A stretch of 64,000 nucleotides of DNA from Candidatus Omnitrophota bacterium (GCA_003528115.1 DOGZ01000017.1:8795-72794); one strand, 5' to 3'. Shown: positions 291 to 18,047, counted from the stretch's first letter. The notes: generated from the letters alone by a model not told the origin. Numbers and translations: made by a program.

Positions 291-1793
291 TCAATCATCC
301 TGCCAGAGAGAGTAAAAGACCCAAAACAGGACCATGGGCAAGACAGCAAAGAGTATGCGATGCAAAGAAACCTGTAACCACCAGCCAATCTCAAAATACG
401 TGTTTACTAAGTAATAAAAGGTAATGATCAGTCCATAGCTTATCAAGAATCCAGGGAGGATAATAAGCCGTGGATGCAGGCATTTCCATTTACTCAAGAT
501 TAATCCCACCATTGCCGCGAGCCATAGCCCATGCCATTTGTGTTCGAGGTATTCAGGCGCTATTCCGGTATGGAATGATTTGAAGAAAACAAACACATTC
601 CAGAGCGGCATTCCTAATTCAAAAAAATAAAATCCGAGGATCGTTTTAATCCTAAGAGGTGTTATGGGTTTTTCCGCTGAAGAAAGACCGTTAATAAAGG
701 TAATGTTGTCTGGAGCATAAAATAGGTTAAAGACAAGTGCAGGAAGAAACCCGATGAAAGCGCCTGTCAGAAAAGTTCGGATCATAGGAAAGGCACCTTT
801 TATTTTTTCAGGAGGCGCTCCGTTACAGACCGATGGGGTTTTCCAAATGAGAAATGGAACAGCCAAGATTAAAAGAATCAGTGAAGCGATGAGGCCTTCA
901 CTCTTTGTGAAACTTAGTAAACCTGTAAAGAGACCGGCTAGGAGCGCCAACGACGGGCAGTTATCGTGTTTGGCTTTGATCAGACAGAAGAGACTCGCGA
1001 GAAGATAAAATCCCAGCACATGGTCACAATACTGGCTGAGCGATAGTTTATTAAAAAGAGGAAGTGTCAGTAAGACAAGGCTGGGAAGAAACGCGTAGGG
1101 GCTTCGGGTTAAGTCCTTGAGACCGCAGTAGAGCAGTCCTAAAGAGAGCAGGGTGAACAAAAATGAAGTGAAAATTGGCCCATCAAAAGTCGCTTGATTA
1201 ATACAGAGCCAACTCCAGACGTTGAGAAGAGGCAAGAATAACGGGTAATGGGGACTGGATCGCCAAAGAATAGGGCTCAAGAGATTTTTCCAGTGCTCTC
1301 CACCGAGAAATAAAAATTTAGCTTTTAAATTCCAAGTCGACCAGGCGTCCCAGCCGCCATAAACGTAAAAATGGGATTGATACCATAAAGGGAGCACCAT
1401 GAGGATAAGTAACAAGACGGTGAGGCCCGCCTTGAATGGAGAGCATGTGGGAAAAAAGAAAATCTTTTTTGTTTGGAAACAACCCTTAGCCCTCGAGAGG
1501 CGGTGGGGATCTGTGCGTCGTTGATGAATGAACATATTCATAAGAAGAAGGATGAGGAAAAAGAAGATATGAAAGGCAATAACAAAGTAGCGGTGGAGCT
1601 GGTTAAAGACGATAAAACTAATGAATGTCAATTGGGTGCTGACCGCCAGGCCTAAACCAAAAGACAAGATCAATTTAAGGGAAAGAGCGATCTTCCGTTG
1701 GGGTTGAATAAGTAAGGTCAACAACAAATATCCAATGCCTAGGGAAATAAGGTAAGGAAGGTAGGTTAAAAGTGTTGGCAGTAACATCGACAA
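291..1793 (-). CDS. Polytopic GT-C-type membrane glycosyltransferase (PMT_2/ArnT-like), paralog A
   Basis: 500 aa with about 12 predicted TM helices. It has a WDAW..WN.K.KFL loop motif and shares long conserved blocks (YPL.LP..NVW; QY.D.LL.FYLLASL; GLL.F.K.EGL) with the 5116..6519 product. Confidence 0.5.
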   Translation of the reverse strand: MSMLLPTLLTYLPYLISLGIGYLLLTLLIQPQRKIALSLKLILSFGLGLAVSTQLTFISFIVFNQLHRYFVIAFHIFFFLILLLMNMFIHQRRTDPHRLSRAKGCFQTKKIFFFPTCSPFKAGLTVLLLILMVLPLWYQSHFYVYGGWDAWSTWNLKAKFLFLGGEHWKNLLSPILWRSSPHYPLFLPLLNVWSWLCINQATFDGPIFTSFLFTLLSLGLLYCGLKDLTRSPYAFLPSLVLLTLPLFNKLSLSQYCDHVLGFYLLASLFCLIKAKHDNCPSLALLAGLFTGLLSFTKSEGLIASLILLILAVPFLIWKTPSVCNGAPPEKIKGAFPMIRTFLTGAFIGFLPALVFNLFYAPDNITFINGLSSAEKPITPLRIKTILGFYFFELGMPLWNVFVFFKSFHTGIAPEYLEHKWHGLWLAAMVGLILSKWKCLHPRLIILPGFLISYGLIITFYYLVNTYFEIGWWLQVSLHRILFAVLPMVLFWVFYSLWQDD

Positions 1794-1829: not shown

Positions 1830-2306
1830 CTAAAAATGTGAACCGGGGTTAGCGAAGATATCTTTCCTTGCAAGGATGACTCCGAACTGATTTCTTCGCC
1901 AAGGGGCCGCTCCAATCTTTTCCATTTCTTGCCAAGCCACCGATTCTTTTGAGCAGAAGAAAATAATATATTCATGCTCCAGATTGTTTAAATCAAGAAT
2001 CGTAGGGGCCAAAATGAATTGGGCATGAGAAAACTGCTTGCTGTGTTCTTGTTGGTTGAGATCGTTATCTGTGTAGTAGCCGACGATTTCCTCCCCCTTC
2101 ACAAACTCTTCCAAGCCTGCAAATTTATAACCGATGTTTTGGTAAGGAAGAACTTTCTTGAACATGTAAACGTCTTTGACGGTCTTTATTAAATCCACGG
2201 CATTGAATAAGGTGATGGCCAACAGGCAAAGGACAAAGAAAAATTTGGAAAAACTCCGAGGTTGTCGAGGGGGAAAGGTCAGTTTTATATTGGATACGAG
2301 TGACAT
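1830..2306 (-). CDS. Small single-pass membrane protein, partner of GT-C paralog A
   Basis: 158 aa with one N-terminal TM helix. It shares the motif Q[FY].LAPTILDLNN..H[EQ][YF][IV]I with the 6519..6938 product and sits immediately upstream of the GT-C gene. Confidence 0.5.
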   Translation of the reverse strand: MSLVSNIKLTFPPRQPRSFSKFFFVLCLLAITLFNAVDLIKTVKDVYMFKKVLPYQNIGYKFAGLEEFVKGEEIVGYYTDNDLNQQEHSKQFSHAQFILAPTILDLNNLEHEYIIFFCSKESVAWQEMEKIGAAPWRRNQFGVILARKDIFANPGSHF

Positions 2307-2327: not shown

Positions 2328-3050
2328 TTAAAACGGTCGAAGGTTTATTTTCTCTTTCAACATTGCCGTAGGATCATTCCTGTTATTCCGTTGGTCCGTT
2401 TGTTTCAAAGCCTTAAGCTCTGAATAACTTAAAATAAGAAGCAGACGAACCGCGGCATAACCATTTCTTAAATGGGTTGTTATATCATAATGGTCGTGTC
2501 CTGAGCCTAAAAGGATTTGTTTATAAATCATGGAGGTATTTATTATTTTGATGTTAACTTCCGGCTGAGTGGTCAGGGCCTTTTGAAAAGACTCAACGGC
2601 TTCAGAATAACGGCCTTCTTTGTAATCAATGAGGCCAAGATTGTAGTGTGACCAAAAGAAATGAGGATTCAGTAAAGCGGCTTTTTTGTAGGCCTCCAAG
2701 GACTTCTGTTTTTCCCCGGTGTGGTAATAACAAAATCCCAACAGGCCATAGGCCTCAGCCAATTGAGGCATGTAGAGAACCACCTTTTCGTAGTATTGAA
2801 TGCAGCCTCGGAGTTTCTTTTTGTCGGGGACTTCCTGGTCATCCATAATTCCTGTGAGATGGACAAAGGAAGGCAGAAGCCGGTTTAATACGGTGATCTT
2901 GGCCGCGTTCAGGCTTTTAGGATGATCGATCGTTGCGTGAAAGAATACCCAGGCGAACAGATACAAGATCATGACACGGTTTCCATAAAACAGGAAACGA
3001 GTTATCAGAAGACTGTTCTTCATGATTTTCTCAGGGAGAATGTTATCCAT
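2328..3050 (-). CDS. TPR-repeat protein with N-terminal membrane anchor
   Basis: 240 aa. TPR-like repeats are visible (AEAYGLLGFCYYHTGEKQKSLEAYKKAALLNP; SHYNLGLIDYKEGRYSEAVESFQKAL) and there is an N-terminal hydrophobic segment. The start overlaps the end of the upstream gene. Confidence 0.55.
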   Translation of the reverse strand: MDNILPEKIMKNSLLITRFLFYGNRVMILYLFAWVFFHATIDHPKSLNAAKITVLNRLLPSFVHLTGIMDDQEVPDKKKLRGCIQYYEKVVLYMPQLAEAYGLLGFCYYHTGEKQKSLEAYKKAALLNPHFFWSHYNLGLIDYKEGRYSEAVESFQKALTTQPEVNIKIINTSMIYKQILLGSGHDHYDITTHLRNGYAAVRLLLILSYSELKALKQTDQRNNRNDPTAMLKEKINLRPF

Positions 3051-5119
3051 AAAAACAAAAGGCTGATCAATAGGAAATAAAATAGAGCTAATAACACGTA
3101 ATTCATAAGATAAGCCCCAGAAGTGCCGAAATGAAAATAGACGACATTTTCTCCCGGCGGAATCCAGAGGCCTTTAAAAGCAATGTTGGCTCGTTCCACA
3201 GGGACAGGTTGCCTGTTAACAAAGGCCTGCCACCGGCTGTCAAAGGAGTCATTATAAACAAGAAATTTACGAGACGGGAAATTGGTTTTTACTTTTATTG
3301 AGTTCATATTGTAGGACAACAAACGGAATTCGGGGGCGTCTTTTTCAATAACCAAGGCTTCCTTAGGAACGTCCCGGGAATCCGCCCCATCTTCCCCGGA
3401 AGAAGAAACAAAGGCCACGTTTCTTTGTTCAGCGAAAGCTTGCTCGACTTCTTTAAAGCTCAAATTCTTATCGGAAATGTTTTCGGTGCGGTCATAAAGG
3501 ATAAATTTATGACTTAGATATTTTCCAAAAATTGTATAATCCAGCCGGCTGTTGGCCAAGTGGTACCACTTTGTCCCGAAATATATTTTTTGTGTGTGGT
3601 CAGGACTGTGGGTATAACTAAAATCCGTGAACGGCCGGTCATACGTGGATGGCCCCGCGTAGGACGGGGAATTGAGGCTGAGATGATAATAGACTTCTGT
3701 CGCGGGAAGGAAAACGAGCCCTAAGAGAAAGATCAGGGTTGAGATTTCTTTACTGATCAATCTTCCATTGAAGATGAGGATAAAGAAAATAAAACTGAAG
3801 CAAATGGTCAAAAAAGAGGTGAGAGACGCCGTCTTGGTGAAGATTGTAAGGAGAAAGCCAATGAAGTGAACGGCCAGGAGAAAAGCCATCGTTAAAATGT
3901 TTTCTTTTTTTGTGGTTGGACGATGAGTTAGGATTGAACGGAACAATTCCGTGACAAAGAGAATCAATAGAGGGAGAAGGATGAGCCAGAGAAAAAAGTG
4001 TGAATTTCTGAAATACTTAAAAAAGAAGACATGCGTGTATAAATAGGAATAAATAGGTAACTGAGGGGTGGTGATGAGAAAGACGAGGAGGCTCCAGATG
4101 AAAAACAGTAGAAGTTTTTTGTTAATTCTGCTCATCGCCCCGAGGCTGAATATCAGATAGGCAAAGAGGGGGATATATAAGACTTTAAAGTGCATGTCCG
4201 GGAGATTGGATAAAAGATAAGAAAAATATACCTCCTCACCGATGCTCCATTCGGTAATTTTATTTATATTGACCTCGAGGGCGTTTTGAGACGAGGAGGC
4301 GTCTGCTCTAAAGGGCAGCGTGAATTCGCCTCTGGATGATTCGTGAAAAAATGTAATGGAAGGCAGGGCGGATAAGAGAAGGGCCGCCAGGCAGAAGCCC
4401 GCGAAGATTTTGTTGTGGTTGAGAAAAGATAGATTCCTTCGGCAGATGGTTAAGAAATCCTGGAAGAAAATAATAATAAAACAAAAGACAAAAGATAAAA
4501 AGATAGTGGCGAAATAAAAGGGAATATACGTGGTCATGAGAAGCATGAAACAGAAAATCAGGCCTAGAAAAGAATGTTTTTGCGGGTTTCTGGAGAAATC
4601 CACCAGAAAAAAGAAAAACCAAATCATGGGGACGAATATGAGGTGGAGATAGGAGTCGAAGAGATTTGTCCCCAGAGAAGAGAACAGGAGAAGGAGGTAA
4701 GCCAAAAAAGCGGACTTTGTATCCCGAAAAATTAAGTGCGCCAGTTTATAGAAACCAAATATGCCCAGAAAGTAGTATGCGCCTAGAAAGGCAAGATAGG
4801 CCAGCGTGTAGTTGAGGCCCATCCCTTGAAGAATAAGAATAAAACCATAAAAAGGATTATAAGCGCCGATTCGGCGTAAAAAGAAATCGTTAGGCGCGCC
4901 TGATTCCCATGTCGGGTTCCATAAAGGAAAGACCCCGCGGCTCACATTATCTAAAAAGAATTTGATTTGTTCGTAGTAGGATACCGCGTCGTGAACGAGG
5001 GCTAATTTGGCGGAAAGAAAATCGCGGAACAAAAATACCCATAAAAGAAAAGAAAAAATAATGATCCAGTAAGGATTTTTAATATGAGGCAGGAAATGGG
5101 GATGTTTGGGCGGCATCAT
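3020..5119 (-). CDS. YfhO-like polytopic membrane protein (GT-C fold glycosyltransferase family)
   Basis: 699 aa with many TM helices. The N-terminal loop (DAVSYYEQIKFF...GVFPLWNP) is typical of the YfhO family, and there is a large C-terminal extracytoplasmic domain. Confidence 0.5.
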   Translation of the reverse strand: MMPPKHPHFLPHIKNPYWIIIFSFLLWVFLFRDFLSAKLALVHDAVSYYEQIKFFLDNVSRGVFPLWNPTWESGAPNDFFLRRIGAYNPFYGFILILQGMGLNYTLAYLAFLGAYYFLGIFGFYKLAHLIFRDTKSAFLAYLLLLFSSLGTNLFDSYLHLIFVPMIWFFFFLVDFSRNPQKHSFLGLIFCFMLLMTTYIPFYFATIFLSFVFCFIIIFFQDFLTICRRNLSFLNHNKIFAGFCLAALLLSALPSITFFHESSRGEFTLPFRADASSSQNALEVNINKITEWSIGEEVYFSYLLSNLPDMHFKVLYIPLFAYLIFSLGAMSRINKKLLLFFIWSLLVFLITTPQLPIYSYLYTHVFFFKYFRNSHFFLWLILLPLLILFVTELFRSILTHRPTTKKENILTMAFLLAVHFIGFLLTIFTKTASLTSFLTICFSFIFFILIFNGRLISKEISTLIFLLGLVFLPATEVYYHLSLNSPSYAGPSTYDRPFTDFSYTHSPDHTQKIYFGTKWYHLANSRLDYTIFGKYLSHKFILYDRTENISDKNLSFKEVEQAFAEQRNVAFVSSSGEDGADSRDVPKEALVIEKDAPEFRLLSYNMNSIKVKTNFPSRKFLVYNDSFDSRWQAFVNRQPVPVERANIAFKGLWIPPGENVVYFHFGTSGAYLMNYVLLALFYFLLISLLFLWITFSLRKS

Positions 5120-6519
5120 GGCTTTTTCTTTGAGCGTGGATTCGGTGATTCCGGTTTCGTATGTTCAGGCAGACGCCAGAAGGTGTAAAAACAACAAAAT
5201 AGAAGGGAGGGGAGTAAATAAAAGAATATTCTTCCCAGCGTGCTTTTGAGCCGCCAGGCAAGATCGAAATTGGCCGTTGTCAGATAAATAATGATGACGA
5301 CGCCCCCATAAACGATAAAAAATAAAGACAGAATCTTACGTTCTTTATAGAAAAATTTTTGGAACCCGGCAAAAAATATAAAAAGGATAAATATCCATAT
5401 GTGACACCAGCGTTCATGAAGAATCTCGCGCCCCAAGGCGGAAAAAATGAGCCAGACGCCTTGTCCATTAAAAAATCTTAATTCTCTGGCGGCGTAGTCG
5501 ATCAGAATGTCCCGGTTGGGCGGCGCTAAAAACAATTTAAAAAAAATGGTTGTCCAGATTGTCAAGATAAGCCCGATGAATATTCCTTGAAGTTGTTGGA
5601 AGGAACTCTTTTGATCTTTCTCTTTATTCCAAAGAAGATAAGCCACAAGCAAGCTTATCAGGACCATCATCATGACGAGACCTTCATTTTTGATGAAGGT
5701 CAATAATCCAAGGAGCATACCCAGCAAAACAGCCGAGCCGGCGTTTTTTGTCGTAAGCATTATCATGGCGATGATCAAACTGGCTAAGAGGTAGAAGGCC
5801 AGAAGAATATCGGCATATTGGGCGGTGGCACAAAATACATAATAAGGATGCAGGAGCAGGAGGCTGGAGGCCAGAAGGGCGATTTCTTTTTTAATAAATT
5901 GCCTTAATCCGGCGTAAAGCAGGATATTACACGACATAGCAAACAGTACCGCCGTAGTTAAGCTGATCTGTTGAAGCGGAGCTCCGGAAAAGGCGTGAAT
6001 CCACACATTGATAAAAGGGAGAAGGAGGGGATAGTCCGGTTGGGTGTGCCAATGGAGTTTATCAAAGATACTACGCCAGGAATCTCCGCTTAAGACAAGG
6101 AATTTTGTCTTCATATTCCACAAGGCCCACGCGTCCCATTGTCCAAAGGGATGTTTGGAGGCTATAAAGTAAATCACAAAAGACAGAACGGTCCACAGCG
6201 CGCAAGCCGCCAAGTCAATCAGAGGCGGATTATCCCAAGAGACGGGGGGAATAGGGGTATTGTTTTGTTTTTGATGAAAAAAGAGGTTGAGCAAAAATAA
6301 CAACATCAGGAGCCCGAGCATAAAACAGGTTATGGCGGGTGGATTAAACTTGTTGAACAACAGGAAGGACAGAAATGTGACGGCGGCGGAGAATCCCAAC
6401 CCAATACCGACAGCCAGAGGCACGATCAAGAGGAAGGGGATTTTTTTTGAGTTCCGCGTAAGAAGATGAAGGATGAGAAAACCCATGAGAAACGATATAA
6501 AATAGGCCAGTAAAAACAT
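5116..6519 (-). CDS. Polytopic GT-C-type membrane glycosyltransferase (PMT_2/ArnT-like), paralog B
   Basis: 467 aa. It carries the QWDAWALWNMKTKFLVLSGDSW motif and is clearly paralogous to 291..1793. Its 4-nt overlap with the downstream gene suggests translational coupling. Confidence 0.5.
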   Translation of the reverse strand: MFLLAYFISFLMGFLILHLLTRNSKKIPFLLIVPLAVGIGLGFSAAVTFLSFLLFNKFNPPAITCFMLGLLMLLFLLNLFFHQKQNNTPIPPVSWDNPPLIDLAACALWTVLSFVIYFIASKHPFGQWDAWALWNMKTKFLVLSGDSWRSIFDKLHWHTQPDYPLLLPFINVWIHAFSGAPLQQISLTTAVLFAMSCNILLYAGLRQFIKKEIALLASSLLLLHPYYVFCATAQYADILLAFYLLASLIIAMIMLTTKNAGSAVLLGMLLGLLTFIKNEGLVMMMVLISLLVAYLLWNKEKDQKSSFQQLQGIFIGLILTIWTTIFFKLFLAPPNRDILIDYAARELRFFNGQGVWLIFSALGREILHERWCHIWIFILFIFFAGFQKFFYKERKILSLFFIVYGGVVIIIYLTTANFDLAWRLKSTLGRIFFYLLPSLLFCCFYTFWRLPEHTKPESPNPRSKKKP

Positions 6520-6938
6520 TATTTTCTCTTTTGCGCTAAAATTTTTTGATATTCATTATCTTTGATGGGAACCGCGTTGATTTTCTTCAAGACATAGTTA
6601 AGGTAAACAGGGCTGGTGTAATCCAATATAACAAATTGATGGTCGGCATTATTAAGATCCAGGATCGTAGGGGCCAGGAAATATTGGGCTTGAAGGAATT
6701 CGCCTTCATTTTTTTCAGGAGAAGTATCTTTATTAGTAAGAAAGCCGGCCTCCTTGACGCCGTGCAGGATTTCTTGAAAGTCCGCGTATTGGGAGCCGGG
6801 TTCAACCACGGCGATTTTCTTCCCGGCTTGAGTCATAACGTAAACGAATAGAAAGAAGGCATTGTAACAAACCAAGAATATAGTCGCCGTTAGGAGGATT
6901 GTTTCTAACTGAAGGCACTTAGTGAGGAAGCGTTTCAT
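6519..6938 (-). CDS. Small single-pass membrane protein, partner of GT-C paralog B
   Basis: 139 aa with one N-terminal TM helix. It carries QYFLAPTILDLNNADHQFVILD, paralogous to 1830..2306, and its stop overlaps the start of the GT-C gene. Confidence 0.5.
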   Translation of the reverse strand: MKRFLTKCLQLETILLTATIFLVCYNAFFLFVYVMTQAGKKIAVVEPGSQYADFQEILHGVKEAGFLTNKDTSPEKNEGEFLQAQYFLAPTILDLNNADHQFVILDYTSPVYLNYVLKKINAVPIKDNEYQKILAQKRK

Positions 6939-7117
6939 CTTAGGAAATTAAGGGTTTTTAAAAAGATTTTTTTATGCTGGATTCAGCTTAGAGCGACATT
7001 ATACAACTAAGTTTCTTATCGGGGAAATCTTTAAATAAAACTTTCTAATCCATTTGGAAATCAGTATAATACCCGCTGTTTACCAGGGAAAGAATTCACA
7101 AGTCGGGAGGGGTTTGA

Positions 7118-8131
7118 TTGGTTAATGTTGGTATCATAGGCTGCGGCCATTGGGGGCCGAATCATATAAGGATTTTTTCTCATTTGCCGAATTCCAAGGC
7201 CTTTATGTGCGCGGATTTGGATGAGAAGCGATTGAAAGCGATTAAAGACACGTTTCTGAATATCCACATTACCACGGATTATCAAGATATTCTGCGAAGC
7301 CCTGATATTGATGCCGTGTGTGTCGCCTCGCCGACAAACACTCATTTTCGGTTGACCAAAGAGGCGTTGGAACATGGGAAACACGTTCTTTGTGAAAAAC
7401 CCCTGGCTCTTTCGGCAGGAGAATGTCGGGAGTTAAAGGAATTGGCGGCCAAACAAAAGAAGTTTCTTATGGTGGGGCACGTCTTTCTTTTTAATTCAGG
7501 CATTGTTTGGCTCAAGGATTTTATTCAATCGGGCGGGTTGGGGCGGATTTATTATGCCTATTCGACTCGAACCAATCTCGGGCCGTTCCGGTATGACGTT
7601 AACGCGTTATGGGATTTGGCGCCGCACGATATCTCCATTTTTAATTTTTTGTTTAATAGCCATCCTGTGAATGTCTCGGCCAGGGGGCAGAAATGTCTCG
7701 GGAATTCTTTGGAAGACATCACTTTTGCGACGTTGGAATATGCCGGAAATATCACGGTGAATATCCATATCAGTTGGCTTGACCCTCGCAAGGTCAGGCA
7801 GATCACGATCGTGGGCGATAAGAAGATGGTGATTTGGGATGATTTGGATAATGTCGGGCCGATTAAATTGTATGATAAACATGTTGAAAAGACAGCGGTC
7901 TTTTATGAAACGTACGGGGAGTTTCAGTTATTATCTAATGAAGGCAGTATCACGATTCCGCATATAGGTTTTAGAGAACCGCTCAAGGCGCAGGGACAGT
8001 ATTTTATTGATTGTATCGAGAAAAATATTTCTCCGGATATGTGTGACGCTCAAAAAGGCATGGACGTTGTCCGAACGTTATGCGCTGTTCAGGAATCTGT
8101 TGAGCAAAACGGGGCGTGCGTGAGAACTTGA
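7118..8131 (+). CDS. Gfo/Idh/MocA family NAD-dependent oxidoreductase, likely UDP-sugar 3-dehydrogenase (WbpB/WlbA-like)
   Basis: N-terminal Rossmann motif VGIIGCGHWGPNH and the EKPLA motif are present. The start is TTG, preceded by a GGGAGGGG ribosome-binding site (RBS). Confidence 0.75.
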   Translation: MVNVGIIGCGHWGPNHIRIFSHLPNSKAFMCADLDEKRLKAIKDTFLNIHITTDYQDILRSPDIDAVCVASPTNTHFRLTKEALEHGKHVLCEKPLALSAGECRELKELAAKQKKFLMVGHVFLFNSGIVWLKDFIQSGGLGRIYYAYSTRTNLGPFRYDVNALWDLAPHDISIFNFLFNSHPVNVSARGQKCLGNSLEDITFATLEYAGNITVNIHISWLDPRKVRQITIVGDKKMVIWDDLDNVGPIKLYDKHVEKTAVFYETYGEFQLLSNEGSITIPHIGFREPLKAQGQYFIDCIEKNISPDMCDAQKGMDVVRTLCAVQESVEQNGACVRT

Positions 8132-8140
8132 GGAGATGGG

Positions 8141-8701
8141 ATGGGATATTTCAAACATGAAAAAGCTCTGGTTCACGCCGAGGCGAAGATCGGTGATGAA
8201 ACGAGGATCTGGGCCTTTGCCAATATTCAGGCCGGAGCGGTGATAGGCCGTGGATGTAATATCTGCGACGGCAGTTTCGTGGAAAAAGGGGCCATTGTCG
8301 GGAATTACGTCACCATCAAACACCATGTTTCGGTTTTCGACGGGGTCACCATTGAGGATGATGTCTTTATCGGCTCGAACATTGCTTTTATTAATGATCG
8401 CTATCCGCGCAGCCATCGTAACGATCCCTGGACGCTGGAAAAGACCCTTGTTGAAAAAGGGGCCACATTGGGGAGTAATGCCGTTGTCCTTTGTGGGATC
8501 ACTATCGGAACGTATGCCGTTGTCGGCGCCGGGAGCGTGGTCACTAAAAATGTGCCGGCGTATGCCATTGTCGTTGGGAATCCGGCTGAATTCAAAGGAT
8601 ATGCCTGCCGATGCGGACGAAAATTGGACCAGGATTTAAGGTGCGGCTGCGGGCGGCAGTATGCGTTAAAGGGAAAAGAGTTGAAGGGTATTGATCGTTA
8701 A
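8141..8701 (+). CDS. Left-handed beta-helix (hexapeptide) sugar N-acetyltransferase (WbpD/QdtC/WxcM-C-like) with C-terminal Cys4 tail
   Basis: Hexapeptide repeats run through the protein. It ends in a CRCG-x9-CGCG tail. Confidence 0.7.
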   Translation: MGYFKHEKALVHAEAKIGDETRIWAFANIQAGAVIGRGCNICDGSFVEKGAIVGNYVTIKHHVSVFDGVTIEDDVFIGSNIAFINDRYPRSHRNDPWTLEKTLVEKGATLGSNAVVLCGITIGTYAVVGAGSVVTKNVPAYAIVVGNPAEFKGYACRCGRKLDQDLRCGCGRQYALKGKELKGIDR

Positions 8702-8762
8702 ATGGATTTTGTGAAGCGTGAGGAGATACGGATCAGGCTTTACGGGAAGAGTGGTTAATTTC

Positions 8763-9494
8763 ATGCGACCTGTTCTTGTTTGTCCGATTGCCTACAATGA
8801 GAATGTCAAGCTGAAGAATGCCATTGAGCGTTTCTTGAAAAGCGGCGTGAAAGATCGGGCAGATTATTTGATTATCGATGATGCCTCGGATGACGGCACG
8901 ACGGAGATGATTCAATCATACGCCGGGCAAGGGGTCAGGACCATCAAGCATGCCCAACGGCAAGGCGTGGGATCCGCGATCCGGACGGGGATCAGATTTG
9001 CCCAAAAAGAAGGGTATGACGTGTTGGTTATTATGGCGGGTAATGATAAAGATAATCCCCAAGAGATCCCGCGCTTGATTGATCCTATCATGAAAGAGGG
9101 TTATGATTTTGTTCAGGGATCACGTTATAAAGGGCCTACAGGCATAGGCGGGGATATGCCGTTTTACCGCAAGGTAGCTACCAGGGTGCATCCTTGGCTG
9201 ATGTCTTTGATAACGCGACGGAGATTAACGGATACAACCAACGGTTTCAGGGCTTTTAAACTTGCGTTCTTTGAGGATATACGTATGAATATTGATCAGG
9301 CGTGGTTGAATCAATATGAACTGGAGCCGTATTTGTTGTATAAGGCTATCCAATTGGGATATAAATTTACTGAAGTCCCGGTGACGAAAATTTACCCCGC
9401 GAAGAAATTGGGGTATACAAAGATGAAACCGTTAACCGGCTGGTGGAGCATATTACGGCCGGTTATTTATTTAGGTCTTGGGATCAAGAAATAG
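8763..9494 (+). CDS. GT2 family glycosyltransferase, polyprenyl-phosphate sugar synthase-like (DPM1/ArnC/GtrB-like)
   Basis: GT-A motifs are present: IIDDASDDGT and the DXD region. The start was chosen at the internal ATG (MRPVLVCPIAYNE). Confidence 0.7.
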   Translation: MRPVLVCPIAYNENVKLKNAIERFLKSGVKDRADYLIIDDASDDGTTEMIQSYAGQGVRTIKHAQRQGVGSAIRTGIRFAQKEGYDVLVIMAGNDKDNPQEIPRLIDPIMKEGYDFVQGSRYKGPTGIGGDMPFYRKVATRVHPWLMSLITRRRLTDTTNGFRAFKLAFFEDIRMNIDQAWLNQYELEPYLLYKAIQLGYKFTEVPVTKIYPAKKLGYTKMKPLTGWWSILRPVIYLGLGIKK

Positions 9495-9545: not shown

Positions 9546-9818
9546 ATGATCAGAAAATATGTGCCATTATTTTTGATTCTTCTGCTAGCCGGGTGTGTGT
9601 ATGAGGGAAAGCCGTTAGGTCATTATATTGAGAATCCGGGTTCTTTAATGGAGGATCCGCATTTTGCGGAGTATCAGAAAAATCGTGATGTCTTGGAGAG
9701 TGAATATTTGCAGAAAAAGATTACTTACGCGGAATATATGGAGAGTAAGAATAAATTAGATGAAAAATACGCCCAAGAAGTTCAAGAGAGAAACGCCAAA
9801 ATAATCTCACAGGAATAA
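9546..9818 (+). CDS. Small lipoprotein
   Basis: The signal peptide carries a lipobox (LLLAGC). Start taken at the internal ATG. Confidence 0.4.
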   Translation: MIRKYVPLFLILLLAGCVYEGKPLGHYIENPGSLMEDPHFAEYQKNRDVLESEYLQKKITYAEYMESKNKLDEKYAQEVQERNAKIISQE

Positions 9819-9885: not shown

Positions 9886-10626
9886 ATGCGCCTCTACGGT
9901 AAGAATCCAGCCAGCGAGCGGTTAAAATCCAACCCTAAAAGTATCAGAAAGATTTATCTTCAAGAGGGATTCGATGACGCGGCCTATTTCCACATGAAAG
10001 CGAAACAGTGGGCTATCCCCGTCATGGTTATTCCCAGATCCCGGATGCTTAAGATCGCCAGGAATGTCAATACCCAAGGCATCTTGGTGGATGTCGAAGA
10101 TTTTTCTTATGTGCCGTTTGATGAACTCTTGGAACAATCCCGCAAAAAGCGAAGGACTCTTTTATTTCTGGATGAAGTGAATGATCCGCAAAATTTAGGC
10201 GCGATCATGCGCTCGGCCGCCTGTCTTGGGAATTTTTCTATTATCCTGCCAACACATGACTCTGTGAGTGTTACGGAAGCCGTATTGCGCGTGGCCTCGG
10301 GGGGAGATAATTTTGTGGCCGTGGCGAAAGTGGCCAATTTAGGTCAGGCGATTAAATCGGCCAAGGAGTCCGGATATTTTATTTTTGGCGCTGTCGTTAA
10401 AGGCGGTCAGCGTCTGGAGGAAGTCTCCTTGCCGTCACCTGTCGGGCTGGTGGTTGGTTCTGAGCAAAAAGGGATTCGAGATGTCATCTTAAAACATCTG
10501 GATTTGCCCGTGACGATCCCGATGGCTGTCGACAGATTGTCGTTGAATGTCGCTCATGCCGTCACCATTTTATGTTATGAAATCACGAGACAAAGGTGGG
10601 AACATGAAAAACAAAAAGCCAAGTGA
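9886..10626 (+). CDS. rlmB: 23S rRNA (guanosine-2'-O)-methyltransferase RlmB (SpoU/TrmH family)
   Basis: The N-terminal domain is RlmB-like (LYGKNP...IRKIYL) and the SPOUT motifs are present (GAIMRSA; VVGSEQKGI; LNVAHA). Confidence 0.75.
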   Translation: MRLYGKNPASERLKSNPKSIRKIYLQEGFDDAAYFHMKAKQWAIPVMVIPRSRMLKIARNVNTQGILVDVEDFSYVPFDELLEQSRKKRRTLLFLDEVNDPQNLGAIMRSAACLGNFSIILPTHDSVSVTEAVLRVASGGDNFVAVAKVANLGQAIKSAKESGYFIFGAVVKGGQRLEEVSLPSPVGLVVGSEQKGIRDVILKHLDLPVTIPMAVDRLSLNVAHAVTILCYEITRQRWEHEKQKAK

Positions 10627-11194
10627 TTTCGCGGCTCTTAATCTTTTTGCTGAAATTGGACTGTTGAAGAAAATCAAGCGTAGCGGCTGGTGGGTCGTAG
10701 GGATCAAGGATCCGGAAAGTGTCGCCGAGCACTCTTTTCGCTGCGCCATCATGGGATATTATATGGCTCATGAAGAAGGGGCGGATCCGTCTAAGGTTGT
10801 CATGATGGCTCTTTTTAACGATATCCATGAGGCGCGTATTAATGATTTGCATAAAATGGGGCATTATTACATAGATTTCAAGAAGGCAGAAAAAAAGGTA
10901 TTTGAAGACCAGGTCAAGCATCTGCGAAAACCCGTGAAGGAGGAATTAGAGGCTGTACGGCGGGAATATGATCTTCAGGTCACGAAGGAAAGCGTCGTCG
11001 CCAGAGATGCGGATATCCTGGAGTGTCTGCTTCAGGCCAAAGAATATTATGATAGTGGGCATGAGAAAGCGAAAAGATTTTTCCAACGGGCCCCGGAGCA
11101 TCTAAAAACAAAATCCGCCCGGAAAATTTGGAATCAGATCAAACGGTGGGATAGCGGGGAGTGGTGGGAAGAGGTGGTTAAGTTTGAACGTTAG
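10604..11194 (+). CDS. HD-domain hydrolase (YfbR-like 5'-deoxynucleotidase family)
   Basis: It carries the SVAEHSFR...ALFNDIHEARINDLH HD motif and overlaps the end of rlmB. Confidence 0.7.
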   Translation: MKNKKPSDFAALNLFAEIGLLKKIKRSGWWVVGIKDPESVAEHSFRCAIMGYYMAHEEGADPSKVVMMALFNDIHEARINDLHKMGHYYIDFKKAEKKVFEDQVKHLRKPVKEELEAVRREYDLQVTKESVVARDADILECLLQAKEYYDSGHEKAKRFFQRAPEHLKTKSARKIWNQIKRWDSGEWWEEVVKFER

Positions 11195-12220: not shown

Positions 12221-12520
12221 ATGAAGCGTATAGGTGTTGCCGCGAGCAAGATGGCCAAGGGCAATCTTGTTCTTTATAATTGTTATGTAGTGCTTATCTC
12301 ATTCTTATTTTCGTTATTTATTTTAATTGTGGCCGGTTCCAGTGTCGTGTTGGCCATTATCATCTTGGCTTATGTGGCCAATGAAATTATGGGTGTTGAG
12401 TTGGAGAAAAGCTGGTCATCCATCCTCAGTGTCTGCATGGTTTCGTTGACGGTTATTATTGCGGTATTTAATTTGTTTGCCATATCCCAAAATATAAAAC
12501 TCCCTAAAAACCAGGATTAA
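12221..12520 (+). CDS. Small two-TM membrane protein
   Basis: 99 aa, hydrophobic. It lies upstream of the sensor kinase. Confidence 0.3.
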   Translation: MKRIGVAASKMAKGNLVLYNCYVVLISFLFSLFILIVAGSSVVLAIIILAYVANEIMGVELEKSWSSILSVCMVSLTVIIAVFNLFAISQNIKLPKNQD

Positions 12521-15260: not shown

Positions 15261-17210
15261 TTGACTTCAGTGAAAGATTCATTGATATCCAAGAAGTGGC
15301 TTCCTATTCGTTTATTGAGTTTTCTTCCCATTGCCCTTATCTTATTTTTTTTAGGAGGGACAACCTATTTTTTTGCCGTTTTTCATCCCTTCGTTCATGA
15401 TGACGTCGTTTTTATCCAAACGAATCCGCGCATCGCAGAATTCAATCTGAAAACAATTTTTTTCACGACAGTGGCCGGTCATTCCGACACGGCTCTGATC
15501 AATGATTATTACCGTCCCTTATTGGAAGTGTTTTACAGGCTTCAATATCAAATATTTCGTCTCAATCCCCATGGTTACCACCTGATGAATATCCTGGTTC
15601 ATATTCTCAACAGTGTGATGGTGTTTCATATTATTTCCTTTATGGGAAAAAGGAAGAGGGACATGGAGAGCCTGACGGGCAATTCGTCAGAGGATTTCTT
15701 GAATCAGGATACGTTATCAACGGCTTTGACATCCTCCGGGGTTCTTGGATCGTTCGCCGGGAACGGATTAGCTTTAGGCGTTGCCGTTCTTTTTCTTGTC
15801 CATCCGGTTCAATCCGAAGCCGTCGCCTGTATTTCCGGGATTTCCAATCTATTATTTGCCTTCTTATGTTTACTGAGTTTTTATTTATACCTTTTGACAA
15901 AAGAAAACATGGCCGACCTTCGATCGCGCAGAGCGCTTTATTTGTATGGAGGTTCTTTGATGAGCTTTCTTTTAGCTCTTGGGGCCAAAGAGCAGGCCGT
16001 TGTCCTGCCGGTGCTTATTGCTTTGTATGAAGTATGTTTCCCCGCGTCTCATCGAGAGAAATGGGGCCGTCCCCTTCTGCAATGGGCGGGGTATGGGGTG
16101 GTGCTGGCAGGGTATTTCATTTTCAGAAAAACTATGGTGGGTTTTAATCCGGGTTCTTTTCTGAATTTTAATGATGAGTTTTGGTTACGGATAGAATCTA
16201 TTCCGCGGACGCTTCTTATGTACGGGTCTCTTATTTTCTCCCCGCGGGATTTACATTACTATCGGAGTACCGACATCCTTCAACCCTTTGCAGGGCCTCT
16301 CGTGGGCCTGCTGGGTGTTCTCACGCTTATCGCGATGATTATTTTTTATGTTCCAGTAACCTGCCGGCGCGTACTTATTTTTAGTATGGGCTGGTTCCTT
16401 ATTTCTCTTTTGCCAACGTTGAATATTCTTCCTTTGATCAATGAATATTCGTACATTTTAACCGCGGAGCATTTTTTATATCTTCCTATGATAGGGATCG
16501 TCTTATTTGTGTTGACTGTGGGGCAATATGGATTGAAGCGGATGCGTCCCAAGATAGGTTCTTGGGTGGGGCCCGCGGTGCTTGGCGTGATAAGTTTTAT
16601 GTTTATGACTTCAACGATAGAACAAAATACGTATTGGCGAGGAGAGATTCCTTTGTTCGAAAGGACTCTGCGCTTTGAGAAATTAGGACGTGTCCATATT
16701 TTGCTGGGCAAGGCGTATTATTTTAATGGGCAATTGGATAAAGCGATCGAAGAGTTGGAAAAGGCGCTGCATATTATCCAGGGGTATATCGCGAAGGTTA
16801 AAGACGAGAGGGTATTAAATTATTATAGAGGATTGGTTAAAGGGGTCTATTTTGATCTTGCCCATTGTTATGAAGGGCTGGGGGCCAGGACCCAATCGCT
16901 GAATCAGTATCTGAAGGCCTCGGCGATCGATCCCAACGACGGCGTTTTACAAAATAATATCGGGGTCAATTATCTTCTCCTTAAGGAGATCGATAAAGCG
17001 ATGGAACATTTTCAAAAGGCGGTTTCTTTAGACTCAAATGATTTGATGGCCATGAATAATTTGGCTTTGTGTTATCTGGAAAGGAAAGAAGAGGATAAGG
17101 CCGAGCAAATTTTAAGAGAAATCTTAAAGAAGAAACCTCAAGACCTCTCAGCGAGGAAGAATTTGGAGAGATTGCTTTCCAGGAAGCAGACCATAGAGAA
17201 GAACCCATAG
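15261..17210 (+). CDS. TMTC-like GT-C glycosyltransferase: DUF1736 polytopic N-domain plus C-terminal TPR repeats
   Basis: The first loop has a DD motif (HPFVHDDVVF). The HPVQSEAV signature of DUF1736/TMTC is present. The C-terminal part has about 6 TPR repeats. The start codon is TTG or GTG and uncertain. Confidence 0.6.
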   Translation: MTSVKDSLISKKWLPIRLLSFLPIALILFFLGGTTYFFAVFHPFVHDDVVFIQTNPRIAEFNLKTIFFTTVAGHSDTALINDYYRPLLEVFYRLQYQIFRLNPHGYHLMNILVHILNSVMVFHIISFMGKRKRDMESLTGNSSEDFLNQDTLSTALTSSGVLGSFAGNGLALGVAVLFLVHPVQSEAVACISGISNLLFAFLCLLSFYLYLLTKENMADLRSRRALYLYGGSLMSFLLALGAKEQAVVLPVLIALYEVCFPASHREKWGRPLLQWAGYGVVLAGYFIFRKTMVGFNPGSFLNFNDEFWLRIESIPRTLLMYGSLIFSPRDLHYYRSTDILQPFAGPLVGLLGVLTLIAMIIFYVPVTCRRVLIFSMGWFLISLLPTLNILPLINEYSYILTAEHFLYLPMIGIVLFVLTVGQYGLKRMRPKIGSWVGPAVLGVISFMFMTSTIEQNTYWRGEIPLFERTLRFEKLGRVHILLGKAYYFNGQLDKAIEELEKALHIIQGYIAKVKDERVLNYYRGLVKGVYFDLAHCYEGLGARTQSLNQYLKASAIDPNDGVLQNNIGVNYLLLKEIDKAMEHFQKAVSLDSNDLMAMNNLALCYLERKEEDKAEQILREILKKKPQDLSARKNLERLLSRKQTIEKNP

Positions 17211-17226
17211 AAGTGAGGTGACAGGG

Positions 17227-17907
17227 ATGTCCTTTGTGAATTTTATAGTTTTGATGGCGATCGTTTTGATTTTGATCCTTCTGGGTGTGCTTTTTTATTG
17301 GCCTATAGAAAAGAAAGACGCGAAGAAAAAGAAAATATCCAAAGAGGAAGAGCCGAAACAAAAAGACTGGCAGCAGACAGCGCAGAGGCTTGAGAAACAT
17401 ATTCATGCGTTGCGCGGTGAGTTGGAGATCTCTCAGCAAAAAGAAAAGGCGGGGGAGAAGCAGATTTTGATCGAAAAGGCAAAAAATAAGAAATTAGAAG
17501 AAAAAGTGGCGCAGGAGAGGGGTTGGCACGAGACAGAGCAGAAGGAGATGGATAAAAGAATTAAAGAGATGGGGGATTTGAAAGAGGAATTCATGAAACT
17601 TCAGGGGATTTTTACCGCTGAACATGCCGTCAATTTGCGTCAGGAGCGCGAGTTAAAAGACCTCAAAAGAGAACGGGATTCTCTTAATGACCAAAGAAGA
17701 GCGCTTGAGGCAGAAAACGCGCAGGCAAAAGCGGAGTTGGGGAATTATAAAAAAGACCTGAGTCAATTCAAACGGGAAAATATGGAGTTGATGAAAAAGA
17801 AAGAAGATACCGTTTGGATCGCTAAATCGGACTATGAGAAACTTCAGCAGTTAGTCAACGAAAAAGATAAAGAATTACAAAGGATGAAGAGAGAGGCAAA
17901 CGAATAA
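17227..17907 (+). CDS. Membrane-anchored coiled-coil protein
   Basis: One N-terminal TM helix followed by a long K/E-rich heptad region. RBS GTGAGG upstream of the ATG. Confidence 0.4.
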   Translation: MSFVNFIVLMAIVLILILLGVLFYWPIEKKDAKKKKISKEEEPKQKDWQQTAQRLEKHIHALRGELEISQQKEKAGEKQILIEKAKNKKLEEKVAQERGWHETEQKEMDKRIKEMGDLKEEFMKLQGIFTAEHAVNLRQERELKDLKRERDSLNDQRRALEAENAQAKAELGNYKKDLSQFKRENMELMKKKEDTVWIAKSDYEKLQQLVNEKDKELQRMKREANE

Positions 17908-17938
17908 TAAGAGGGAGAGTATAAGTTAAGATTGAGAT

Positions 17939-17966
17939 AAAATTCATTTTATGTATAATGAAATTG
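17939..17966 (+). promoter_or_regulatory. AT-rich palindrome (Fur/PerR-box-like) overlapping a TATAAT upstream of ferritin
   Basis: AAATTCATT-n9-AATGAAATT is a near-perfect inverted repeat with TATAAT in its centre. Confidence 0.3.
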
Positions 17967-18047
17967 CGTTGAGGGCCTATGAAGTCTGCGCAGGTTGGCG
18001 GACAAAAAATATATCCCACTACTCAAGGATGGGGAGAGGAGATAGAG

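Follow-up and report, generated by a model that had tools for sequence, protein, structure and literature searches.

A putative sugar-modification and lipid-carrier loading operon divergent from GT-C genes in a Candidatus Omnitrophota bacterium

Introduction

Within the window, which is the whole stretch of 64,000 nucleotides of Candidatus Omnitrophota DNA analysed here (GCA_003528115.1, DOGZ01000017.1:8795-72794), three adjacent genes for an oxidoreductase, an acetyltransferase and a family 2 glycosyltransferase (GT2) run away from an operon of membrane glycosyltransferases of the GT-C type, and this arrangement raises the question of which sugar the three enzymes prepare and to which acceptor it is delivered. 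An earlier note on this DNA had proposed that the GT2 loads an N-acetylated amino or keto sugar onto undecaprenyl phosphate in the cytoplasm and that a GT-C enzyme uses it in the periplasm. The present analysis indicates that the trio most likely makes a modified sugar and attaches it to a membrane lipid carrier for its outward-facing GT-C neighbours. Cell-surface decoration by a GT2 loader and a GT-C transferase is of a familiar kind, and the oddities of this locus are a GT2 without the metal motif and an aminotransferase gene that is missing from the locus phylum-wide.

Organization of the locus

The three genes lie on the plus strand in the order oxidoreductase, left-handed beta-helix (LbH) N-acetyltransferase and GT2, and are transcribed away from the GT-C operon on the minus strand; ORF calls, Pfam and PDB matches agree with the three families and the divergent operon that had been described previously. 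The two transcription units are separated by an AT-rich spacer of 179 bp (6939..7117), in which a TATAAT-like hexamer (7066-7071) and a GGGAGG ribosome-binding site (7106-7111) can be read before the TTG start of the oxidoreductase, while a consensus promoter scan of the spacer gave no match above shuffled expectation and none of the Rfam families matched it.

The divergent operon opens with p139 (6519..6938, minus strand), which combines a single N-terminal transmembrane (TM) helix with a domain of some 100 residues, matches no known family in Pfam or NCBIfam, evolves fast (4 database matches only) and gave an unusable AF2 model (pLDDT 58). It is 34% identical to its paralogue p158 (1830..2306, minus strand; identified by translation and comparison), the small partner of a second GT-C, and always stands before a GT-C gene. 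Next comes a PMT_2/ArnT-like GT-C of 467 aa with about 11 TM segments (5116..6519, minus strand; Pfam PMT_2 31.7 bits against a cut-off of 26.1), which is the presumed consumer of the lipid-linked sugar and is 29% identical to the second, 500-aa GT-C of the PMT_2 type (291..1793, minus strand; PMT_2 33 bits, about 9 TM segments). The same strand also encodes a 699-aa membrane protein (3020..5119; orthologues in loci L003 and L034), which has 13 predicted TM segments and a weak C-terminal YfhO similarity (16.8 bits, under the Pfam cut-off of 28.5) and is probably also a GT-C, together with a 240-aa protein with Pfam TPR repeats that belongs to the GT-C operon (2328..3050).

Directly 3' of the GT2, the lipobox LLLAGC marks a small lipoprotein (9546..9818, plus strand; about 90 aa), which has no Pfam or NCBIfam match; its orthologues (87-90 aa) occupy the same position in most Omnitrophota loci, and it may be part of the same operon. 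Further downstream, a fourth GT-C-like membrane protein with 9 TM segments and C-terminal TPR domains (15261..17210, plus strand) is syntenic in all Omnitrophota loci and has orthologues with weak PMT_2 matches, making it a possible further consumer of the sugar whose membership in the system is uncertain.

The sugar-modifying enzymes

The first gene (7118..8131, plus strand) encodes a 337-aa NAD-dependent oxidoreductase of the Gfo/Idh/MocA family, as recognized by Pfam, NCBIfam and PDB profile searches, with a GFO_IDH_MocA domain (PF01408, 2.3e-31) and both C-terminal domains (PF22725 and PF02894). The earlier note had assigned it to this family, which holds, and to the WbpB/WlbA subtype, which does not, as NCBIfam and PDB scores bring it closer to UDP-GlcNAc 3-dehydrogenases of the GnnA/archaeal type. 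Its best NCBIfam match is the UDP-GlcNAc 3-dehydrogenase model NF040723 at 179 bits, with iolG at 114, each under its cut-off (450 bits for the NF040723 equivalog). In the PDB profile search 3c1a scored 132 bits and 7bvj, presumably GnnA, 116, compared with 86 or less for inositol dehydrogenases, and 3q2i and 3q2k, which we take to be WlbA structures, reached about 72-80 bits, level with the inositol dehydrogenases and below 7bvj. A check on whether the protein would rather be an inositol or glucose-fructose dehydrogenase thus favoured UDP-GlcNAc 3-dehydrogenase, against which it scores best. In addition, an EKP motif and many invariant residues are common to the oxidoreductase and to orthologues located beside a DegT aminotransferase gene, CEKP being invariant in the alignment. 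Taken together, these similarities suggest a nucleotide-sugar 3-dehydrogenase, most like UDP-GlcNAc 3-dehydrogenase. The mid-size ORFs tested in the window included no UDP-GlcNAc 6-dehydrogenase, and no 2-epimerase turned up in the ORFs tested.

The second gene (8141..8701, plus strand) encodes a 186-aa LbH N-acetyltransferase (Pfam Hexapep, 3.1e-20), for which a WbpD/QdtC-like identity had been put forward; strong matches to the structures of an FdtD-like enzyme (4mzu, 1.1e-44), 7s3u (2.4e-39), WlbB (3mqg, 3.2e-39) and QdtC (2e-16) bear this out. The motif F-x-N-D-(R/K)-x-P-R-S is common to the LbH protein, 4mzu and 7s3u, its Asn aligns with an Asn of WlbB, and the C-terminus carries a four-Cys tail. 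The protein thus belongs to the WlbB/FdtD/QdtC class of enzymes for 3-amino sugars, whose solved members it strongly resembles over its full length. Of 44 Omnitrophota loci, 41 have the gene, whereas three (L003, L012 and L032) genuinely lack it and keep the oxidoreductase (Gfo) and GT2, so that an acetamido product would not be universal in the phylum.

Conservation and gene context

Among the Omnitrophota loci with enough upstream sequence, Gfo is present in 44/44, and the order Gfo-LbH-GT2 is the same in all 44 (with LbH in 41 of them), far beyond chance. Upstream of the trio, a divergent small partner and GT-C are found in 34/41 loci, the other seven having unrelated genes and no GT-C genes at this position. 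However, synteny across the phylum extends to the entire 20-kb region, and adjacency within Omnitrophota alone therefore carries little weight. Outside the phylum, a DegT aminotransferase gene adjoins the other three in 12/12 loci to form a four-gene cassette. This cassette occurs in two gene orders, Gfo-LbH-GT2-DegT and GT2-Gfo-DegT-LbH, and a linkage that survives rearrangement points to functional coupling. The non-Omnitrophota cassettes also adjoin GT-C proteins of three families, PMT_2, GT87 and YfhO (the latter in L063), and natural fusions of GT2 with a PMT_2-type GT-C exist in either order (P0269 and P0379). The Omnitrophota Gfo, LbH and GT2 proteins share 40-59% identity with their orthologues from DegT-linked cassettes, and the motifs are retained, which argues that their chemistry is unchanged.

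This context bears on the possibility that the genes are only in part functionally linked and that the oxidoreductase serves lipid A synthesis as a housekeeping GnnA, which, with an unlinked GnnB, would supply UDP-GlcNAc3N for a GlcN3N-based lipid A while the GT2 loads an ordinary sugar such as GlcNAc, Glc or Man onto polyprenyl phosphate for the GT-Cs. Consistent with such a role, its best characterised relatives are UDP-GlcNAc 3-dehydrogenases, it occurs in every locus like a core gene, it comes from a diderm that has lpxD and lpxC-fabZ inside the window, an unlinked DegT would be GnnB, and the LbH-less lineages retain Gfo and GT2. On the other hand, Gfo, DegT, LbH and GT2 stay linked elsewhere through rearrangements and not beside lpx genes, and a WlbB/FdtD-type N-acetyltransferase has no role in lipid A; we consider this explanation unlikely. 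The two readings are also compatible, since a shared UDP-GlcNAc3N pool could serve both lipid A and the lipid-linked sugar.

The amination step and the flippase

The aminotransferase expected between dehydrogenase and acetyltransferase had been reported as missing from the locus, and the searches agree: no DegT-type enzyme was found in about 74 kb of this contig, nor in the 64-kb window or the 19 kb that follow it, and none lies within ±10 kb in the 50 Omnitrophota loci (0/50; 849 kb). Furthermore, the best 120 homologues of a cassette DegT include no Omnitrophota-labelled protein. The nearest class I/II aminotransferase, previously placed at 18629, was recovered as ORF 18629-19840. The amination step is thus without an enzyme in hand. 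An unlinked aminotransferase is nevertheless plausible, because at least one other genome (L075) has a cassette-type DegT away from the other cassette genes.

The same absence invites an amine-free pathway in Omnitrophota, in which a 3-keto or 3-epimerised nucleotide sugar is formed, the LbH protein O-acetylates it or acts on another substrate, and the GT2 loads the product; that the LbH gene is optional fits this scheme as well. However, a 3-keto nucleotide sugar is an unstable intermediate, the LbH proteins of Omnitrophota and of DegT-linked cassettes share about 50% identity, the Omnitrophota LbH domain is similarly close to solved 3-amino-sugar N-acetyltransferases with the same active-site motif, and the DegT absence covers the loci and the contig stretch rather than the whole genome. 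An amine-free route accordingly seems to us rather improbable, and a 3-amino sugar made with an aminotransferase encoded elsewhere is preferred.

With regard to export, the earlier statement that no GtrA/ArnEF-type flippase is visible stands, as TM scan, Pfam and NCBIfam detected no GtrA/GtcA- or ArnE/F-type flippase near the locus and phmmer with ArnE/F gave no match in the window or in 70 loci. In the vicinity there is a single small ORF with several TM segments (12221-12520), and neither Pfam nor NCBIfam matches it significantly. It had also been suggested that the small partner proteins might fill the aminotransferase or flippase roles, an option that was abandoned given that beyond a single TM helix they have only about 100 residues.

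The glycosyltransferase

The third gene (8763..9494, plus strand) encodes a GT2 that resembles DPM1, ArnC and GtrB in Pfam (PF00535), AF2, Foldseek and alignment analyses. Its ORF opens at 8718 or 8763, and the ATG at 8763 is almost certainly the true start, giving 243 aa, because this is the length of a database protein with 100% identity and of nearly all orthologues. The Glycos_transf_2 domain is recognized at 8.6e-21, the protein comes closest in the PDB to Pyrococcus Dol-P-Man synthase (1.2e-12), with ArnC and GtrB next, and all scores against NCBIfam equivalogs are far under their cut-offs. In the AF2 model (pLDDT 85), the top 16 Foldseek matches in the PDB are ArnC, DPMS and GtrB structures (E 8e-13 to 4e-10, TM-scores 0.66-0.74).

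The residues that would hold the acceptor are conserved. In PfDPMS, R117, R131 and S135 position the Dol-P phosphate (PMC5526996, PMC12690121), and they align with R121, R136 and T140 of this GT2, which are invariant in the orthologue alignment; in the wider set R121 is found in 136/137 representatives and R136 in 132/138, and the corresponding residues of E. coli ArnC are R, R and S. The metal site, in contrast, is not canonical. The second Asp and the Gln of the DADLQx motif of polyprenyl-phosphate GTs bind a divalent metal and the first Asp serves in sugar binding or as a base (PMC5526996, PMC12690121), whereas HMM and MAFFT alignments place A92-G93-N94-D95-K96-D97 of this GT2 there, with G93, N94, K96 and D97 invariant across phyla and Asn/Lys of the clade co-varying against Asp/Gln of DADLQ. 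We hypothesise that Lys96 might neutralise the donor diphosphate in place of the cation. Thus, the DPM1/ArnC likeness that had been proposed applies to fold, PDB matches and acceptor-phosphate residues and fails for the DXD/Gln metal site, for which reason canonical membership in the DPM1/ArnC group was rejected.

The protein had also been called soluble, which is true insofar as a TM scan detects no helix, and incomplete insofar as a conserved hydrophobic/amphipathic C-terminal helix (residues 223-239, WWSILRPVIYLGLGIKK; hydropathy peak 1.02 against a threshold of 1.6, pLDDT 50-68) follows an invariant TKMKPLTGWWSILRP motif. A check for the C-terminal domain of processive synthases was negative, the 243-aa protein having neither QxxRW nor TM helices.

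The replaced DADLQ and the missing TM helix could also mean that the GT2 is not a polyprenyl-phosphate transferase and uses a soluble phosphorylated acceptor, as the glucosyl- and mannosyl-3-phosphoglycerate synthases GpgS and MpgS do, or another cytoplasmic substrate, the GT-C neighbours being coincidental, and GpgS and MpgS structures indeed match the model with TM-scores of 0.6-0.69. Nevertheless, the polyprenyl-phosphate GTs score higher in PDB profile searches (DPMS 76 bits, ArnC 46 and GtrB 33, against 21 for GpgS) and in structure comparison (E 1e-12 against 4e-10), GT2-PMT_2 fusions exist, cassettes of several phyla have GT-C genes as neighbours, the hydrophobic C-terminal tail is conserved, and eukaryotic DPM1 enzymes likewise have no multi-TM domains, all of which renders a soluble acceptor very unlikely.

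Proposed pathway

In the preferred reading, the Gfo/Idh/MocA enzyme would oxidise a nucleotide hexose (most likely UDP-GlcNAc) at C3, and a PLP-dependent aminotransferase, which is the adjacent DegT in other phyla and would be encoded elsewhere in Omnitrophota, would convert the 3-keto group to an amine. The LbH enzyme would then N-acetylate this amine to give UDP-GlcNAc3NAc or a similar 3-acetamido sugar, a product suggested by its closeness to solved 3-amino-sugar N-acetyltransferases. Subsequently, the GT2, which its C-terminal helix may tether to the membrane, would move the sugar to polyprenyl phosphate, as suggested by its fold and conserved acceptor-phosphate residues together with the fusions and the gene context, and after flipping, the GT-Cs of the divergent operon (two of the PMT_2 type and one YfhO-like) would act in the periplasm on envelope glycans or proteins.

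The division of labour between a cytoplasmic GT2 and a periplasmic GT-C advanced in the earlier note is supported by the context (the 34/41 synteny, cassettes beside PMT_2, GT87 and YfhO proteins, and GT2 plus PMT_2 fusions) and by the structure (ArnC, DPMS and GtrB neighbours and the acceptor-phosphate residues). Its N-acetylated amino-sugar donor gains from the DegT that adjoins the same genes elsewhere and is weakened by the amination enzyme not found here; as no enzyme for this step was identified in this organism, the identity of the sugar is one that we infer. Judged from sequence comparison, it is probable overall that the trio is the Omnitrophota version of a widespread four-gene cassette and that the whole route from sugar modification through polyprenyl-phosphate loading to periplasmic GT-C transfer operates as proposed. 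More tentative, and on balance doubtful, is the joint proposal that the GT2 clade is a large group of metal-free polyprenyl-phosphate GTs, with Lys and Asn in place of the cation, and that the Omnitrophota cassette is DegT-free. If true, the DegT-free Omnitrophota would employ an aminotransferase from outside the DegT family or load a 3-oxidised sugar that carries no amine, and the resulting lipid-linked sugar would have no described counterpart.

Comparison with known systems

The Arn system, which adds aminoarabinose to lipid A through ArnB, ArnC and ArnT together with ArnA, ArnD and ArnE/F, likewise makes a cytoplasmic nucleotide amino-sugar that is N-acylated, as proposed here, and its GT2, which tops the matches of our GT2 model, loads undecaprenyl phosphate for a periplasmic PMT_2/ArnT GT-C. 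It differs in that this locus offers no equivalent of its aminotransferase, deformylase and ArnE/F flippase, its chemistry takes place at C4 rather than C3, ArnC has a metal motif (100-DADLQN-105) that this GT2 lacks along with TM helices, and there is one GT-C gene instead of three to four. The three-component periplasmic glycosylation systems GtrA/GtrB/GtrC and CsbB/GtcA/YfhO also combine a GT2 polyprenyl-phosphate loader with a GT-C, and the divergent operon has its YfhO-like protein; unlike them, this locus shows no detected GtrA/GtcA-like flippase, has dedicated sugar-tailoring enzymes where plain Glc or GlcNAc is used there, and has a GT2 with a non-canonical metal site.

By sequence, the GT2 is closest to PfDPMS (76 bits), with which it shares the acceptor-phosphate residues, whereas PfDPMS has 89-DADLQH-94 in place of AGNDKD. 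Yeast and human DPM1 are about the size of this GT2 and also have no four-TM domain. Dol-P-Man synthases use GDP-Man, in contrast to the probable UDP-acetamido sugar donor of this GT2, which is further set apart by its distinct invariant C-terminal motif TKMKPLTGWWSILRP. The tailoring genes recall the UDP-2,3-diacetamido sugar pathways, namely WbpB/WbpE/WbpD (WlbA/C/B) of Pseudomonas and Bordetella, along with the archaeal UDP-GlcNAc 3-dehydrogenase and GnnA/GnnB pathways, in their combination of a Gfo/Idh/MocA 3-dehydrogenase, a DegT 3-aminotransferase and an LbH 3-N-acetyltransferase. These known pathways have the aminotransferase that this locus lacks and feed cytoplasmic O-antigen assembly, whereas a polyprenyl-phosphate GT2 and GT-Cs are present here.

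Finally, mycobacterial PpgS with the GT-C Rv3779, Francisella FlmF2/FlmK and Bordetella LgmA/LgmB are polyprenyl-phospho-GalNAc/GlcNAc systems. The present locus departs from them in having no deacetylase and in the proposed further modification of the sugar at C3. PpgS is among the best NCBIfam matches of the GT2 (62 bits, and 87 for the orthologue in L052, with a cut-off far above, at 370), and these systems share with the proposed pathway a small DPM1-like GT2 that loads an N-acetyl amino sugar and a GT-C that transfers it to an envelope polymer.

Organization of the locus

It had been proposed in the earlier note that three genes, transcribed divergently from a cluster of multi-TM, periplasm-facing glycosyltransferases (GT-C), produce a modified amino-sugar and load it onto polyprenyl phosphate for use by that cluster, following the logic of the ArnC/ArnT and GtrB/GtrC systems. 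The divergent arrangement is confirmed by the ORFs, the spacer and the minus-strand GT-C genes. In the window, which derives from a Candidatus Omnitrophota genome, the plus strand carries an oxidoreductase with both Gfo/Idh/MocA domains (Gfo, 7118-8131), a left-handed beta-helix N-acetyltransferase (LbH, 8141-8701) and a glycosyltransferase of 243 aa (GT2, 8763-9494), with gaps of 9 and 61 bases between them. The GT2 ORF can be extended upstream to a GTG at 8718, although the ATG at 8763 is taken as its start because a 100% identical database protein (named Omnitrophica at NCBI) has 243 aa, as do nearly all orthologues. Directly after GT2 lies a small lipoprotein gene (9546-9818, plus strand; about 90 aa, lipobox LLLAGC), which is found behind GT2 in most Omnitrophota loci and matches no family.

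An AT-rich spacer of 179 bp separates the trio from the minus-strand operon, which encodes, in order from the spacer, the small protein p139 (6519-6938), a PMT_2-type GT-C protein (467 aa), a 13-TM protein of 699 aa weakly similar to YfhO, a TPR protein, a second small protein, p158 (1830-2306), and another PMT_2 GT-C protein (500 aa). Since p139 is a paralogue of p158 (34% identity), and the two PMT_2 proteins are likewise paralogous (29% identity), the small-partner and GT-C module has been duplicated. Each small partner stands directly upstream of a PMT_2 gene, and both are fast-evolving, with only 4 database matches and no known family; they might serve as accessory subunits, chaperones or acceptors. 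Promoter, terminator and Rfam scans of the locus were uninformative. On a broader scale, GC skew is positive in all 2-kb bins of the window (1-64000; 0.12-0.28) and the plus strand holds nearly all genes past 7 kb, the GT-C operon and a 518-aa ORF at 29724-31280 being the only sizeable minus-strand blocks.

Predicted sugar-modifying enzymes

The best curated family for the oxidoreductase is UDP-GlcNAc 3-dehydrogenase, at 179 bits versus 114 for inositol 2-dehydrogenase, both scores lying below the cut-offs. When a profile made from 14 orthologues was ranked against PDB entries, the top match was 3c1a, of unknown function (132 bits), with 116 bits for 7bvj, which we take to be GnnA, the UDP-GlcNAc 3-dehydrogenase of Acidithiobacillus, and 109 bits for 6nor, presumably GenD2. 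Inositol and glucose-fructose oxidoreductases reached at most 91 bits, and 3q2i and 3q2k, assumed here to be WlbA, scored 72-80 bits. These rankings make the enzyme a candidate sugar 3-dehydrogenase of the GnnA/archaeal type. Its initial placement in the Gfo/Idh/MocA family stands; the suggested likeness to WbpB/WlbA does not. In turn, LbH matches solved 3-amino-sugar N-acetyltransferases (4mzu, 1e-44; 7s3u, 2e-39; WlbB 3mqg, 3e-39) and has the motif F-x-N-D-(R/K)-x-P-R-S in common with 4mzu and 7s3u. Its C-terminal tail (residues about 155-172) contains four cysteines in a C-x-C-G ... C-x-C-G pattern resembling a zinc ribbon; this tail is kept in orthologues from other phyla, but WlbB lacks it and has residues other than Cys at the aligned positions.

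Cassettes and fusions in other phyla

The pathway context of these enzymes becomes apparent outside Omnitrophota, in loci from Planctomycetota, Acidobacteriota, Actinomycetota, Myxococcota, one spirochaete and unclassified bins. In all 12 non-Omnitrophota loci possessing Gfo, a gene of the DegT family of PLP sugar aminotransferases is adjacent, giving a four-gene cassette that occurs in two orders, Gfo-LbH-GT2-DegT and GT2-Gfo-DegT-LbH. The linkage thus outlives rearrangement across phyla, implying a common pathway, and the enzyme set supports a predicted route of 3-oxidation, 3-amination and 3-N-acetylation, for which the product would most likely be UDP-GlcNAc3NAc. Literature searches returned nothing relevant on UDP-GlcNAc3NAc with undecaprenyl phosphate, nor on Omnitrophota glycosyltransferases.

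Large multi-TM proteins of three GT-C families adjoin the cassettes, namely PMT_2 (L058, L054), GT87 (L066) and YfhO (L063). Moreover, an exhaustive search of cluster representatives revealed natural fusions in both orders, a PMT_2 GT-C followed by GT2 in P0269 and the reverse in P0379, together with several further fusions of GT2 to uncharacterised membrane domains with 7-10 TM segments. Cassettes, GT-C neighbours and fusions all support the proposal that GT-C enzymes receive a lipid-linked sugar from GT2. The cassette and its fusions also provide a straightforward genomic marker by which periplasmic glycosylation systems could be located across many phyla. Among the fusions P0269, P0379 and P0350 there is also one case in which the GT2 clade is joined to a GlcNAc 2-epimerase-like domain. 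In two Acidobacteriota loci (L060, 4142-6616; L061, 7134-10705) GT2 lies behind a different, longer LbH and FabH-like (KAS III) genes, of which L061 has two, and Gfo and DegT are missing; the donor there may be tailored in another way, possibly by acylation.

Conservation within Omnitrophota

Scanning a single genome from each species gave 65 comparison loci, to which further look-ups added more, and all of their ORFs were compared with the proteins of the window and with E. coli Arn proteins. Of 50 non-redundant loci of the Omnitrophota type (849 kb in total), 44 extend far enough upstream, and in every one of them Gfo comes before GT2, and LbH lies between them in 41 of these 44, being cleanly missing from L003, L012 and L032; LbH is therefore optional in some lineages of the phylum. 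The divergent small-partner and GT-C module is found upstream in 34 of 41 loci, and in the remaining 7 it is replaced by unrelated Kdp or two-component genes. Nevertheless, adjacency inside Omnitrophota is weak evidence alone, because the whole 20-kb neighbourhood, including SpoU, an HD protein, a hybrid kinase, a further GT-C-TPR protein and a class I/II aminotransferase, is syntenic through the phylum. Omnitrophota are uncultured, often ultra-small bacteria of unknown envelope chemistry, and with GT2 identities of about 70-77% across most of the phylum this locus is among their most conserved envelope gene sets.

Many species-representative records titled 'uncultured Planctomycetales' (L005, L008, L014, L016, L020 and others) have an Omnitrophota-type locus with the same synteny and GT2 identities of 69-77%, and are probably Omnitrophota genomes under a wrong title. 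A divergent GT2 of the clade (52% identical) occurs in Omnitrophota RA.bin107 (L064, 2991-17001), where Gfo and LbH are absent and the neighbours are two YfhO-like GT-C genes, other multi-TM proteins, an ArnC-like GT2, a FemAB/GNAT-like protein and a methyltransferase. A tightly packed block at 15261-19840 of the window, with phylum-wide synteny, encodes the class I/II aminotransferase, a protein of 229 aa with one TM segment, and a GT-C-like protein, the fourth, in which 9 TM segments are combined with TPR; a ferritin gene has been inserted into the block at 17979-18545 in this genome.

The aminotransferase and flippase steps

The aminotransferase step was reported missing in the earlier note, and this holds both here and throughout the 50 Omnitrophota loci, none of which has a DegT within ±10 kb, cassette-type DegT queries included. 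Likewise, phmmer searches with E. coli ArnB and cassette-type DegTs, run over every ORF in the window and in 70 loci, matched no Omnitrophota locus. No DegT was found in the 64-kb window or in the 19 kb that follow it on its 101.9-kb contig, nor did extension of this contig to about 74 kb reveal one. When the cassette DegT of L052 was used as a database query, the best 120 matches included none labelled Omnitrophota and none on known Omnitrophota contigs. It could be argued that another aminotransferase stands in, and a Pfam search of window ORFs of 330-450 aa did return one, and only one, the class I/II enzyme at 18629; however, this resembles generic class I enzymes such as those of the Tyr/Ala/Asp type, is syntenic solely as part of the 20-kb region, and is an unlikely substitute for DegT. 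The contig annotation also places a class IV aminotransferase (Aminotran_4, 287 aa) at 53261-54124, probably a branched-chain or D-amino-acid enzyme. Gfo, LbH and GT2 of Omnitrophota share 40-59% identity with the orthologues linked to DegT and keep their motifs, and in at least one other genome (L075, on a 637-kb contig) a lone DegT (10001-11113; 64% identical to that of L052) lies between HAD hydrolase and PEP carboxykinase genes, so a cassette-type DegT can be unlinked. On these grounds, an unlinked DegT is the most likely answer in Omnitrophota.

As first noted, a flippase-like gene was not detected in the locus either, where the small multi-TM ORFs searched gave no significant match. Only one such ORF lies nearby (12221-12520; 99 aa, 3 predicted TM segments), about 3 kb downstream of GT2 in conserved synteny; in size it resembles small flippases or DPM2/DPM3-like subunits, and nothing ties it to either. 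The suggestion that the small partners p139 and p158 act as flippase or aminotransferase was rejected, since each combines a single TM helix with roughly 100 more residues and matches no family. The predicted structure of p139, from a 5-sequence alignment, has a pLDDT of 58.

A metal-motif switch in GT2

The best match of GT2 is the Pyrococcus Dol-P-Man synthase, followed by ArnC and GtrB, and the same three polyprenyl-phosphate glycosyltransferases are the top structural neighbours of its AlphaFold model (pLDDT 85; TM-scores 0.66-0.74), with glucosyl-3-phosphoglycerate synthases ranking next. Membership of the processive cellulose/chitin/hyaluronan-type synthases is ruled out, as GT2 has neither the QxxRW motif nor a TM helix, only a hydrophobic/amphipathic C-terminal helix. 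All three solved polyprenyl-phosphate enzymes have in common the motif D-A-D-L-Q-x, in which the second Asp and the Gln bind a divalent metal that holds the donor diphosphate, while the first Asp contacts the sugar or serves as base (PMC5526996, PMC12690121). In HMM and MAFFT alignments, anchored by a downstream P-x-E-I-P, this motif falls on A92-G93-N94-D95-K96-D97 of GT2, of which G93, N94, K96 and D97 are invariant over at least 8 phyla. Among 135 cluster representatives with both metal-ligand positions, 95 have Asn plus Lys, 30 have Asp plus Gln and none is mixed, a co-variation that could stem from a split into two clades and not from repeated independent switching. The acceptor-phosphate residues R117, R131 and S135 of PfDPMS are conserved as R121, R136 and T140. 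Judging from these residues, GT2 might still use a phosphate-bearing lipid acceptor, with Lys96, rather than a metal, holding the donor diphosphate. No paper was found on a class of polyprenyl-phosphate glycosyltransferases lacking the DXD or metal motif.

Conclusions

The initial interpretation was largely right in outline; the corrections concern the WbpB/WlbA likeness, the roles of the small partners, LbH, which some lineages do without, and the relation of GT2 to the DPM1/ArnC family. The system appears to be a periplasmic glycosylation system of the three-component type in which dedicated enzymes tailor a 3-acetamido sugar, and the locus predicts a specific lipid-linked form of this sugar, used by several GT-C enzymes. 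The presence of lpxD followed by a fused lpxC-fabZ gene (450 aa) at 45409-47807 of the window indicates lipid A synthesis in this organism, and lipid A is among the candidate acceptors onto which the GT-C enzymes might transfer the sugar.

In comparison with known systems, GT2 agrees with DPM1/ArnC in fold and nearest relatives and fails in their defining metal motif, and it is therefore best regarded as working like these enzymes without being a canonical member. By the switch from Asp/Gln to Asn/Lys, a class of DPM1/ArnC-like enzymes can be delimited and tested, comprising 107 cluster representatives at E ≤ 1e-30, that may have no need of a metal, which bears on the currently debated mechanism of ArnC, GtrB and DPMS.
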